IMG/VR virus record: IMGVR_UViG_2744054628_000002
Location: 1-11,990 of that record
Strand: one strand, 5' to 3'
DNA length: 11,990 nt
From: a virus
Taxonomy: Duplodnaviria; Heunggongvirae; Uroviricota; Caudoviricetes
The notes under the pieces are model-generated. The model saw only the letters and a program-made list of their open reading frames with translations. It did not search any database and had not been told where the DNA came from. The translations under genes and the position numbers were made by a program. Positions 1,527-6,787 of the stretch are shown piece after piece (position 1 is the stretch's first letter; each line of letters begins with the position of its first letter).

Positions 1527-2528
1527 ATGGATATTCGCACACGAAAGACAAAATTTTTAGAGTCGTTAGATTCAACTGAAGTGATACGCAAAGCAGTAAG
1601 TCTCGCTATAGATTGCATTATTGATAATCATAATAGTAATGAAGATACCCCCTTAGTTATTACCAGCTATGATGATCTCTGTAGAATCCAGGTGCTAAAT
1701 TATGTACAGGAGTTTTGCGAAGCTGCATTCCCTGATATGGATGAATATTACTTTAGTCCTAACATACTTCGCATCAACGGCAAGACTAGTGAAGAAGCTT
1801 GTATTAACTTAATTAAACTCTTAAGAAGTACAAAAGGCATGCTATTCTGGTCCGATGCCCCATCGTGGTTCGCTAGCCTCCCCGACGGATTATTCCATGT
1901 TGTTAACATTGATCAAAAAATCGTTACTCGCGGCCTTAATAAGAAAAACTCTAAGCCGACAATAATCAATAAAGATTACAGTGTAGATACACTACTATCA
2001 GAGCTATTTTTGAATGGCGCACACATGGAGCAACCCAACGTACACAACGTTTCTGAGGGAAACATGAAGTTCTATGATGAATGCCATGCTGGATTAATCA
2101 GACCAATACCCGCTCCAATAGGCGCGTCATACGATGAAGAGATCACAATTAATTCTCCAGATTGGCAAAAGCTCGCGTGTGTAGCTTTACGCCGCTATCA
2201 GTCGAAGGAATGTCATGACGGAATGCAATGGGATACAACCGATCATGGTTGGACTGATGTAATCGCGTATCCATTCGTCGAAGAAATACAATCAATGGAT
2301 AATAGTGGTTATCGACAATGTTTAGTTGGGCTGGTCACAATAAACAATTCAAATGCAAATTCTCCGTACCTATCTACCGTTTGGATACATCCATTTTATC
2401 GCAGGAGAGGGTTATTAAGTAAGTTATGGCCAAAATTACAAGAGTTATATGGAAGTAACTTCGAAATTGAGCGACCTAATGAAAATATGAAAGCATTTCT
2501 GAAAAGTGCGAAACACGCAGATTACTAA
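1527..2528 (+). CDS. cassette protein B, 333 aa; unknown N-terminal domain plus C-terminal region with a GNAT-acetyltransferase-like motif A (IHPFYRRRGLLSKLW)
   Basis: ATG 1527 lies 15 nt after the stop of protein A, same strand, implying an operon; stop TAA 2526-2528. The motif at about 2385-2429 resembles the acetyl-CoA-binding V-x-P-x-x-R-x-x-G-x-G/A segment of GNAT enzymes, with L in place of the second G. AT-rich like gene A. Confidence 0.75.
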   Translation: MDIRTRKTKFLESLDSTEVIRKAVSLAIDCIIDNHNSNEDTPLVITSYDDLCRIQVLNYVQEFCEAAFPDMDEYYFSPNILRINGKTSEEACINLIKLLRSTKGMLFWSDAPSWFASLPDGLFHVVNIDQKIVTRGLNKKNSKPTIINKDYSVDTLLSELFLNGAHMEQPNVHNVSEGNMKFYDECHAGLIRPIPAPIGASYDEEITINSPDWQKLACVALRRYQSKECHDGMQWDTTDHGWTDVIAYPFVEEIQSMDNSGYRQCLVGLVTINNSNANSPYLSTVWIHPFYRRRGLLSKLWPKLQELYGSNFEIERPNENMKAFLKSAKHADY

Positions 2529-2941
2529 TTTATGAATCAGTCTGTGGAGTTAGAGTTGGTGTGAACAAGTAGGGTAAGAGCCTCAACGTGATGCTATGCC
2601 GACCTGCTCCCTGAGAATTCACACAGAAGGCTGCTAGCAATGTCTGCAGATCGCTCAAAGCGGACTAGAAGGTTAGCTTGCGTCGGACTTGGCGTATTTA
2701 AAGAAGTGCTGGTGGTGACTGGTTGTTGTGTTCCATTTCTACAGAACAAAATCACAGAAACTATACCCAATAGTTGTATCTCATCAATGATGAGACAGCC
2801 TCATATTTATCAGGACTGGTGTACGTCCAATACAGGAGGTTGTCGTGCTGGTTCTCAAATGTGCGCTGGCTATTGCAGCTGTAATGGCAATTTATTGTCT
2901 TGCTGTTGTTCTTATGGATCGCTTTTCTGATTGATTTTATA

Positions 2942-2970
2942 TTGGCGAGGTAACGGGAGTTAAGTAGAAT
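2942..2970 (+). promoter_or_regulatory. candidate sigma70 promoter for hok mRNA (-35 TTGGCG 2942-2947, 17-nt spacer, -10 TAGAAT 2965-2970)
   Basis: Hexamers and spacing read directly. The predicted start (~2977) falls at GGTGCTTGAGGCTATCTG, which resembles the conserved 5' end of hok-family mRNAs as I recall it (GGCGCTTGAGGCTTTCTG in plasmid R1). Confidence 0.45.
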
Positions 2971-3145
2971 GGCTGCGGGTGCTTGAGGCTATCTGTCTCA
3001 GGCATGAACACCAAAGGCAGATAGAGAAAAGCCCCAGTTAACATTACGCGTCCTGCAAGACGCTTAACATTAATCTGAGGCTCAATCTATGAACGGCAAA
3101 TCTAGGTTAGCCTCTTACGTGCCGAAAGGCAAGGAGAAGCAGGCT

Positions 3146-3301
3146 ATGAAGCAGCAAAAGGCGATGTTAATCGCCCTGATCGTCATCTGTTTAACCGTCA
3201 TAGTGACGGCACTGGTAACGAGGAAAGACCTCTGCGAGGTACGAATCCGAACCGGCCAGACGGAGGTCGCTGTCTTCACAGCTTACGAACCTGAGGAGTA
3301 A
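3146..3301 (+). CDS. hok: Hok-family type I toxin (small membrane host-killing peptide), 51 aa
   Basis: Translation MKQQKAMLIALIVICLTVIVTALVTRKDLCEVRIRTGQTEVAVFTAYEPEE matches the Hok/Gef/RelF(HokD) family as I recall it: single TM helix and conserved C-terminal AVFxAYE. ATG 3146; AAGGAG at 3131-3136. The ORF-track start 3089 is an in-frame upstream ATG. Confidence 0.9.
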   Translation: MKQQKAMLIALIVICLTVIVTALVTRKDLCEVRIRTGQTEVAVFTAYEPEE

Positions 3302-3368
3302 GAGACCAGGCGGGGGAGAATCCCTCGCCACCTCTGATGTGTCAGGCATCCTCAACGCACCCGCACTT

Positions 3369-3395
3369 AACCCGCTTCGGCGGGTTTTGTTTTTT
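3369..3395 (+). terminator. intrinsic terminator at the 3' end of the hok transcript
   Basis: AACCCGC (3369-3375), TTCG loop, GCGGGTT (3380-3386), then TTGTTTTTT. Lies inside the 5' part of ORF-track ORF 3339..3746, arguing that the downstream gene starts later. Confidence 0.7.
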
Positions 3396-3467
3396 CCTAG
3401 CATTCTGGTTTACAATTCGCACGCCAGCCTGAACAACTGGCACCTGCTGCGCCAGCAGAGACAACCG

Positions 3468-3746
3468 ATGGCGCACGATACCAAATTACACAATTCTGAT
3501 GATTCTGCCGTCTTTGCCAGCAGGCACGGGCGGCGTTCCCGCACTTTCAAATCTGACTGGTTCCAGCATCCCCCATGCACTGAAGAACAGGCCGAGTGGC
3601 TAATTCAGTGCTACCGCAGACACGGATACGAGATTAAGAAAGCCCTCAGCCTCGATTATCGTCACTGGATAATCTCCGTCAGGCTTCCTTACTCCGAGCG
3701 CCCACCGCGTCCGTCCCGCACATTCCAGCAACGCATCTGGAGGTAA
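3468..3746 (+). CDS. small basic prophage protein, Rem-like by position (between hok and the DUF968 gene, as rem is in Qin); function unknown
   Basis: First ATG (3468) downstream of the hok terminator in the 3339..3746 frame; stop TAA 3744-3746 sits inside the RBS-start spacer of the next gene. Positional analogy is from memory of the K-12 Qin map. Confidence 0.5.
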   Translation: MAHDTKLHNSDDSAVFASRHGRRSRTFKSDWFQHPPCTEEQAEWLIQCYRRHGYEIKKALSLDYRHWIISVRLPYSERPPRPSRTFQQRIWR

Positions 3747-6145: not shown

Positions 6146-6221
6146 GGCCCTTTAGCTCAGTGGTGAGAGCGAGCGACTCATAATCGCCAGGTCGCTGGTT
6201 CAAATCCAGCAAGGGCCACCA
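6146..6221 (+). tRNA. tRNA with CAT anticodon (Met or lysidine-type Ile2), 76 nt, CCA encoded; probably the ileX/ileZ-like tRNA that lambdoid and Stx phages carry after Q
   Basis: Hand-folded cloverleaf: acceptor GGCCCTT/AAGGGCC, D-arm GCTC-AGTGGTGA-GAGC, anticodon loop CTCATAA (CAT at 6179-6181), T-arm GCTGG-TTCAAAT-CCAGC, discriminator A, CCA 6219-6221. Close to E. coli ileX as recalled. Confidence 0.85.
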
Positions 6222-6366: not shown

Positions 6367-6731
6367 GTGGTTGCACTCCTGTTGTTTCTGGTGGTGATGG
6401 TGGACTTCAGCAGCCGGATAATGTCGGTGCTGTCTGATGGTGTTTTGGTGGCGGGTGTGTGGTTGTTGCTTTCCCGTTGCTGAAAAAGAAAGCATCAGGC
6501 GATTAGCAGGGTATCAGTTACCCGTTGAAATTTTTAAATACCTCACAATTCCACAGCTTGATGATTGTCTGGCTGCCGGAGAATTTGTTAAAAATTACAT
6601 CGCATGGTGAATCCCCCTGTGCGGAGGGGTAATCAGCGAGTAGGTATATGGGATAATCGCGGATTCAGGTGCTGGTACTGAATTCACCGGGAGGCACCCG
6701 GCACCATGCAATGGCACATAGCGCCACTCTC

Positions 6732-6759
6732 CAGCCCCTCTCCGGAGGGGCTGTTTATA
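6732..6759 (+). terminator. GC-rich hairpin followed by T-rich tract; candidate intrinsic terminator
   Basis: 9-bp stem CAGCCCCTC / GAGGGGCTG with TCCG loop (6732-6753), then TTTATATTGATTTTG. U-tract is interrupted, so strength uncertain. Confidence 0.4.
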
Positions 6760-6787
6760 TTGATTTTGTCAGATGTGAGTAAACTCC

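Follow-up and report, generated by a model that had tools for sequence, protein, structure and literature searches.

Evidence that a defective lambdoid prophage of Escherichia coli carries a complete hok/mok/sok type I toxin-antitoxin module in its nin region

Does a small toxin locus carried by a lambdoid prophage constitute a complete hok/mok/sok type I toxin-antitoxin module, with its antisense RNA and its mok reading frame in place, or is it one of the forms that have lost their regulatory parts? The question is raised by positions 2942-3395 of a DNA of 11,990 nucleotides from a virus of the Caudoviricetes (IMG/VR record IMGVR_UViG_2744054628_000002), the whole of which is called the window here. 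A preliminary description of this DNA had claimed an apparently intact type I locus of the hok kind, equipped with promoter, leader and terminator. We consider it highly probable, at roughly 85%, that the locus is a complete hok/mok/sok type I toxin-antitoxin module, and that a defective lambdoid (Qin/Rac-like) prophage of E. coli carries it within the nin region, with a ren-like gene on one side and the gene of the Q antiterminator on the other. The genes of this prophage follow one another as a ren-like gene, two unknown ORFs, the hok locus, a rem-like ORF, a DUF968 gene, RusA, antiterminator Q, a tRNA and a lysis cassette.

Regarding its prevalence, the locus taken as 521 bp has matches in 4956 of 5426 complete E. 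coli genomes, with a median of two places per genome, and a full-length copy (at least 80% coverage) is present in 3839 of the 5426. Since full-length copies are found in most E. coli genomes and prophages are enriched in hok genes (bioRxiv 10.1101/2025.08.07.668861), the finding is already known and common, and the window locus is an ordinary copy of a well-known hok/sok module. What is added here is that the coordinates of Sok and mok are now fixed, both of which are omitted in the genome annotation, where RefSeq annotates only 'hokD'. Full-length copies such as that of the window are natural material for testing the function of prophage hok/sok.

What the present analysis shows is each of the sequence elements, together with three predicted folds and the conservation of these. 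The homologue alignment comprises 45 distinct sequences from E. coli, Shigella, E. albertii, Kluyvera, Photorhabdus and phages, and a separate set of 117 distinct hok loci was fetched for the layout of mok. The elements of the locus are given below in the order of their coordinates.

2942-2970, plus strand: hok promoter returned by the scan, -35 TTGGCG (2942-2947), 17-nt spacer, -10 TAGAAT (2965-2970).
2978-3395, plus strand: putative full-length hok mRNA of about 418 nt, which begins at the inferred +1 and includes the whole T-run of the terminator.
2978-2988, plus strand: tac (translational activator element) at the extreme 5' end, near-invariant in the 45 homologues.
2995-3005, plus strand: partner of tac in the metastable nascent hairpin, from the fold of 2978-3030.
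3027-3097, minus strand: predicted Sok antisense RNA of about 71 nt (5' end 3097), its ends mapped from 933W sokW and K-12 sokC.
3029-3037, plus strand: ucb (upstream complementary box, or anti-SD of mok), from the full-length and truncated folds.
3077-3114, plus strand: sokT target hairpin of the processed mRNA, from the truncated fold, with loop 3093-3100 = ACGGCAAA.
3089-3301, plus strand: mok reading frame of 70 codons from the ORF list, in frame with hok and with a common stop, SD GAGG 8 nt upstream.
3104-3132, minus strand: Sok promoter, -35 TTGCCT (3132-3127), 17-nt spacer, -10 TAACCT (3109-3104).
3120-3131, plus strand: small conserved hairpin UGCC-GAAA-GGCA directly 5' of the hok Shine-Dalgarno sequence, from the full-length fold and the Rfam consensus structure.
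3131-3136, plus strand: hok Shine-Dalgarno sequence AAGGAG, read from the sequence, 9 nt before the hok ATG.
3146-3301, plus strand: hok toxin gene of 51 aa, by Pfam HOK_GEF, PHROG 251 and identity to K-12 HokD/RelF.
3309-3329, plus strand: GC-rich 3' hairpin, from the full-length and truncated folds.
3350-3361, plus strand: fbi (fold-back inhibition element), complementary to tac except for a single bulge at 3356.
3369-3395, plus strand: intrinsic terminator of the hok mRNA returned by the scan, stem 3369-3386, UUCG loop, then T-run.

Taken jointly, these elements are far beyond chance. Those listed in the preliminary description were all found at the positions it gave, and its claim of an intact locus is borne out element by element. 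In the alignment to the hok/sok leader elements that it had proposed, tac, ucb, fbi and sokT are all present, and the pairings that they form are conserved in the homologues; its statement that no disruption is visible also stands, for the alignment with 933W hokW, K-12 hokC and hokB and 40 other relatives reveals no IS, frameshift or deletion in the window locus.

The promoter claimed at 2942-2970 is returned by a consensus scan as TTGGCG-17-TAGAAT with 9/12 consensus matches, being one of 3 promoter-like sites in 800 bp against 0.7 +/- 0.9 in shuffles. Its -10 hexamer, kept in the homologues as TAGAAT, TATAAT, TACAAT or TAGGAT, ends 7 nt before the conserved 5' end of the RNA. At this end, position 2978 aligns with the R1 +1 GGCGCUUGAGG, the leader GG(G)TGCTTGAGG begins at 2977/2978, and conservation falls sharply outside 2959-3388. 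The conserved 5' leader, also claimed before, is recognised by Rfam RF01794 on the plus strand over 2977-3151 (full model 1-157, 110 bits against a gathering score of 59, E=7.5e-25), and a relaxed-threshold Rfam search of 2500-3500 gave no other RNA family. At the other end, the UUCG-loop terminator claimed at 3369-3395 is given by the consensus scan as the stem 3369-3386 with a T-run; this terminator is common to the window and K-12 hokD and is absent from 933W.

The model RF01794 itself is named 'sok antitoxin', and its match lies on the sense strand of hok, where it spans the leader from the start of the mRNA up to the AUG of hok. What it describes is the hok leader and not the 71-nt antisense Sok, and annotation copied from such a match would misstate both the strand and the extent of Sok.

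The 51-aa Hok-family toxin reported at 3146-3301 is confirmed by a match to Pfam PF01848 HOK_GEF over profile positions 1-42 of 42 (E=1.2e-23, 82.9 bits, cut-off 22) and by a match to PHROG 251 'MokW-like host killing' (2.8e-33), and its 51 residues are 100% identical to K-12 HokD/RelF and to RefSeq WP_000813254.1 'HokD'. This identical K-12 HokD was a toxic positive control in a recent survey (bioRxiv 10.1101/2025.08.07.668861). At the hok start the motif CAAGGAG is invariant across the 45 homologues, and the small hairpin before it takes the forms GACC-GAAA-GGTC, GACC-TTCG-GGTC and GCGC-TTTG-CGC in homologues. As a separate observation in the coding region, the Tyr47 codon TAC with the G that follows it (3284-3287) makes up UACG, the motif at which TadA carries out A-to-I editing of mRNA (Tyr to Cys); for hokD of K-12, identical to the window at this site, editing of about 6% is reported (PMC12214031).

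The Sok promoter had been expected on the minus strand around 3100-3150, with no convincing site picked by eye. The expected location proved right, the promoter lying at 3104-3132, whereas the simple promoter scanner that had been suggested did not call the site, which has 7/12 of the sigma-70 consensus. Each of its hexamers is too weak for the scanner's thresholds, and the site was thus missed both by eye and by the scanner; it was conservation, together with the annotated ends of sokW and sokC, that located the promoter. The arrangement TTGCCT-17-TAACCT is exact in 62 distinct loci, the same geometry recurs in R1 (TTGCGC-17-TATCCT) and hokB (TTGCCG-17-TAAGAT), and the -10 hexamer ends 6 nt before the annotated Sok 5' end. 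For the RNA itself, 933W sokW is annotated on the minus strand with 71 nt and a 5' end 8 nt inside mokW (mok ATG+8), and in K-12 the 5' ends lie 8 nt inside mokC for sokC and 10 nt inside mokB for sokB. The Sok predicted for the window is identical to sokW at 64/71 positions, and the 43 bases upstream are identical as far as -4. Its predicted fold consists of a 14-nt single-stranded 5' tail, a long hairpin with a terminator-like stem and a UUUU tail (-30 to -33 kcal/mol); the same architecture is established for R1 Sok, with an 11-nt tail and a stable stem-loop (PMC1635323). A cis-encoded Sok with its own promoter is thus predicted to cover the mok initiation region.

Another hexamer, TAAGAG (3117-3112), was considered as the Sok -10 and rejected, as there is no -35-like hexamer at a workable distance and the start would fall about 8 nt upstream of the annotated 5' ends of sokW, sokC and sokB. 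The invariance of CTCTTAC on the plus strand, which had raised this candidate, arises because the adjacent dcb pairs with SDmok, the Shine-Dalgarno sequence of mok.

Regarding mok, the ORF list gives 3089-3301, in agreement with the in-frame ATG at 3089 and the 70-codon frame described before. The interpretation that accompanied it, an extended Hok instead of a mok, has to be abandoned, since the in-frame layout is that of the annotated mokC and mokW and of about 90 of the 117 relatives. In K-12, mokC and hokC end at one stop codon (16751..16960 and 16751..16903), and so do mokW and hokW in 933W. Among the 117 distinct relatives the mok ATG lies 57 nt 5' of the hok ATG, in frame, in about 90, and at 58 nt (the +1 frame, as in R1 and hokB) in about 10; in 10 others it lies at 56 nt, with a mok of 19 codons whose offset and length imply a stop in an ATGA overlap with the hok start. 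Judged from these sequences, all three layouts would bring ribosomes to the hok start. This fits the report that what matters is translation of mok as far as the hok initiation region and not the Mok product (PMC9841398), so that a 70-aa 'extended Hok' is to be expected as a by-product in this subfamily. By its sequence, the in-frame 70-codon frame is the standard mok of the subfamily, and annotators may regard an in-frame mok as normal there.

The opposite proposition, that the frame yields a real product, an N-terminally extended Hok started from ATG3089 with no separate coupling of mok and hok, seems to us very improbable. It is true that ATG3089 has its own GAGG 8 nt upstream with the frame open into hok, and that, since mok is in frame, translation initiated at 3089 can only yield the 70-aa fusion. 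However, the internal hok start possesses a strong SD, AAGGAG at 9-nt spacing, which is invariant in all 45 homologues, and close relatives with a +1-frame or 19-codon mok can make only the 51-aa Hok; moreover, no part of the locus varies more than mok codons 2-5, for which 14 alleles accompany an identical Hok, and this is unlike a functional protein segment. We thus retain the frame as mok.

Three conformations of the R1 hok mRNA have been described (PMC9841398; PMC1635323), and the three folds predicted for the window reproduce them. The first 53 nt (2978-3030) fold into a metastable hairpin in which 2979-2989 pairs with 2995-3005. In the full-length minimum free energy fold (2978-3395), tac at 2978-2988 pairs with fbi at 3350-3361, and ucb (about 3029-3037) holds the SDmok region 3075-3082. 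When the RNA is cut at 3346, just past the GC-rich 3' hairpin, 2978-2984 of tac moves onto ucb and SDmok pairs with dcb. The sokT hairpin is then made of SDmok GAGG (3077-3080) paired with dcb (3109-3114), the mok AUG in the inner stem and an 8-nt loop. If the cut is placed at 3335 or 3340 instead, the fold has no tac/ucb pairing, which is seen only with the 3346 end, so the prediction of refolding depends on where trimming stops. The hairpin 3309-3329 would likely be the road-block for 3' exonucleolytic trimming, a role assigned from R1 (PMC1635323), and it shows compensatory GC to AU changes in 17 and 6 sequences.

These pairings are conserved among the homologues. Across the 45 sequences the full-length structure is 88.9% paired, against 35-44% with the partners slid by 1-3 columns, a control that is tilted in favour of the structure because the scored structure was derived from the window's own sequence. 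Changes on both sides occur in 36 pairs of the 45-sequence alignment versus 24.3 +/- 2.7 in shuffles, none of 500 reaching the observed value. The tac/fbi helix is 97.0% paired in the 45 sequences with G-C to A-U compensation in 4, and a separate duplex search finds it as GAGG/CCTC to GAGA/TCTC; the tac/ucb helix is 99.3% paired in the 45 sequences, and the SDmok/dcb pairs are kept in 44-45 of them. The helices with double changes are real despite the origin of the structure in the window sequence.

Within the transcribed unit, diversity measured as entropy peaks at 3079-3098, a stretch that takes in the stem-loop of sokT, the codons with which mok begins and the 5' tail of Sok. Hypervariable are the 12 nt that follow the AUG of mok (3092-3103), where the loop of sokT coincides with mok codons 2-5 and with the 5' end of Sok. 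Among 70 loci whose Hok is identical to that of the window, there are 14 alleles of these 12 nt, the window allele AACGGCAAATCT being found in six, and copies within one genome carry different alleles. The sokT hairpin is predicted in most of the 47 sequence variants. The YUNR U-turn motif is absent from the predicted sokT loop of the window, ACGGCAAA; it is found in R1 (CUAG) and in about half of the 47 sokT variants, and as the commonest variant, CUCUACACA, is also without it, the motif is not universal in the subfamily. A loop without YUNR means that binding of Sok could be slower in the window locus.

The allele pattern, read from sequence, suggests selection for Sok/hok pairs that do not cross-react. 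More tentatively, and with less than even confidence, we propose that the 12 nt after the mok AUG, complementary to the Sok 5' end, may serve as an 'address' which diversifies rapidly and by which the different hok/sok copies of a genome stay mutually orthogonal, the window carrying a minority allele, AACGGCAAATCT, which would work without YUNR. Non-cross-reacting pairs are well established for the Sib/Ibs family, and orthogonal Sok/hok pairs would be a modest extension and not a new principle. Chromosomal Sok RNAs show no cross-talk with R1 hok (PMC9841398). The variable Sok-recognition loop provides a ready-made allele set for testing antisense specificity.

For the window locus we infer the transcripts, their processing, the toxicity and the biological role, and the mechanism as a whole is taken by homology from plasmid R1 hok/sok and phage hokW-sokW. 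On this basis, the weak promoter at 2942-2970 would produce a stable mRNA of about 418 nt, the 5' end of which (tac) would be held in a metastable hairpin in the nascent RNA. In the finished RNA tac would pair with fbi near the 3' end and ucb would sequester the mok Shine-Dalgarno sequence, and owing to these two pairings the full-length RNA would escape both translation and binding by Sok. As exonucleases slowly shorten the 3' end to about 3346, fbi would be removed and tac would shift to ucb, so that SDmok would enter the sokT hairpin and could be reached by ribosomes or by Sok. The unstable 71-nt Sok, made constitutively from the opposite strand (3097 to 3027), would bind the sokT loop by its 5' tail and block mok translation, with RNase III cutting the duplex. 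Once Sok is lost, mok would be translated and the in-frame ribosomes would run through the hok start, opening or feeding hok translation, and the 51-aa Hok would depolarise the inner membrane. The module would likely serve to maintain the prophage, or else to assist lysis and the release of phage upon induction, in the way reported for hokW-sokW.

It may be argued instead that the locus, although its structure is intact, has no physiological activity. It would then be an inert passenger, selfish or relic, that a single copy per prophage never allows to be activated and that plays no part in maintenance, lysis or defence. According to a recent summary, the chromosomal loci hokA of E. coli C, hokB of K-12 and hokC of ECOR24, all natural strains, gave no post-segregational killing and no rifampicin response (bioRxiv 10.1101/2025.08.07.668861); Faridani et al. 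considered that single-copy chromosomal toxins may be harder to activate (PMC1635323); and the host prophage has the look of a defective one, its tail genes being truncated in AF44, a near-identical genome. On the other hand, the regulatory elements are conserved with compensatory changes across many lineages, which speaks for selection that is still in force; R1 hok kills from one chromosomal copy when Sok is absent (PMC9841398); and hokW-sokW, 93.5% identical to the window locus, has a measurable effect on phage release (PMC8621323). We therefore hold an inert passenger to be unlikely.

The surroundings of the module yielded several observations of their own. Immediately upstream, a 29-codon ORF with a GTG start (2845-2934, plus strand; SD AGGAGG at 2834-2839) encodes a hydrophobic peptide, MLVLKCALAIAAVMAIYCLAVVLMDRFSD, with no Pfam, PHROG or PADLOC match. 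The ORF is open and of the same length in 15/15 distinct copies with mostly synonymous or conservative changes, and these 15 include copies of about 85% identity with unrelated upstream DNA. Its start lies 301 nt upstream of the hok ATG in the window and in phages HannyBb and mEp460, and the block around it, 2651-2945, was found in 1709 of the 5426 complete E. coli genomes and is unannotated in 15/15 of the records listed. By the pattern of its conservation it is probably a real small membrane-protein gene, and given its fixed distance of 301 nt the hok/sok module may extend further than has been assumed. Back-to-back with the hok promoter there is a promoter-like site on the minus strand, TTAACT-18-TAAAAT (2934-2963), an RNA from which would be antisense to the 3' end of the 29-codon ORF. 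As its -10 is TGAAAT in most homologous copies, conservation does not support a promoter there. A second type I toxin-antitoxin pair, made of the 29-codon ORF and this minus-strand promoter (2963 to 2934), was considered and is unsupported, the key A of the -10 being lost in most copies.

Further upstream, between the ren-like gene and hok, lies a two-gene cassette (399-1511 and 1527-2528, plus strand; phrog_17908 and phrog_16994), whose Pfam matches are weak and sub-threshold (HEPN_RES_NTD1 2e-4; C-terminal GNAT 9e-4) and for which 399-2528 gave no PADLOC match. The slot holds other cargo in other prophages, for example an IS5 with a hypothetical gene in PigCaeca_2, and may be a variable moron or defence slot. 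Downstream of Q there is a tRNA with anticodon CAT (6146-6221, plus strand), called Met by ARAGORN versus tRNA-Ile by RefSeq, the latter call implying, with this anticodon, a lysidine modification. After the tRNA, 6572-6762 on the plus strand is a full-length match to the sRNA family STnc100 (132 bits).

Compared with known systems, the window locus is 93.5% identical in nucleotides over 2957-3372 to hokW-sokW of the Stx2 phage 933W, a system also carried by Sakai prophage Sp5, with which it shares a 51-aa Hok (47/51 identical), a 70-codon in-frame mok and a 71-nt Sok starting from mok ATG+8. The two differ at five of the first nine Sok nucleotides and at mok codons 2-5, and the C-terminus of Hok is TAYEPEE in the window versus VDYESEK in HokW. 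The 933W sequence diverges from the window after 3372 and hence lacks the terminator found here, and hokW is near the genome end beside late and tail genes, whereas the window locus lies in the nin region. Experimentally, hokW-sokW behaves as a type I toxin-antitoxin system, its toxicity being neutralised by the 71-nt sokW and unmasked by mutation of the sokW promoter; it depends partially on RNase III and Hfq, and it aids the release of Sp5 after induction (PMC8621323).

The parB locus hok/mok/sok of plasmid R1 shares with the window tac, fbi, ucb, dcb, SDmok, sokT and the conformational switch, as well as a Sok composed of a 5' tail and a hairpin and a Sok promoter with -35 TTGC.., 17 nt and -10 TA..CT. 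Unlike the window, in which mok is in frame, R1 has mok in the +1 frame (ATG 116 versus hok ATG 174, a 58-nt offset); R1 hok/sok is plasmid-borne with YUNR (CUAG) in the sokT loop, whereas the window locus is in a prophage with a loop devoid of it. HokW, a near relative of the window Hok, is 44% identical to R1 Hok (PMC8621323). As a side observation, in an IncF plasmid (NZ_CP141206.1, locus L006) the leader of the R1-type hok is missing ahead of the mok region, and DNA next to an annotated IS150 stands in its place; this locus was compared from the mok region onward only, and its IS150 looks like a plasmid counterpart of IS inactivation at K-12 chromosomal hok loci.

Of the K-12 loci, hokC (gef)/mokC/sokC resembles the window in its in-frame mok (69 codons with a common stop), in the Sok 5' end 8 nt inside mok and in an identical tac; it differs in a Hok of about 80% identity and in a Sok of 59 nt that lacks the 16-18-nt hairpin extension, and its K-12 copy has an IS186 immediately downstream. 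Finally, hokD (relF) of the K-12 Qin prophage equals the window in Hok, coding DNA, 3' UTR, fbi and terminator, and has the same downstream order of a rem-like ORF, DUF968 (ydfU) and Q. Its homology to the window, however, starts only at about 3131, with relBE upstream in K-12. Because relBE replaces everything upstream, K-12 hokD is left without hok promoter, tac, ucb, mok start, sokT and Sok gene, and it has been described as having lost its regulatory parts through rearrangement and become inactivated (PMC12214031). The window locus is not of this K-12 type, a hok ORF fused downstream of relBE, for it keeps the 150 nt of leader that K-12 lost. The RefSeq label 'HokD' thus reflects protein identity only and is not to be read as the truncated K-12 form; by comparison of the sequences, the window locus is the unrearranged, full-length form of K-12 hokD.
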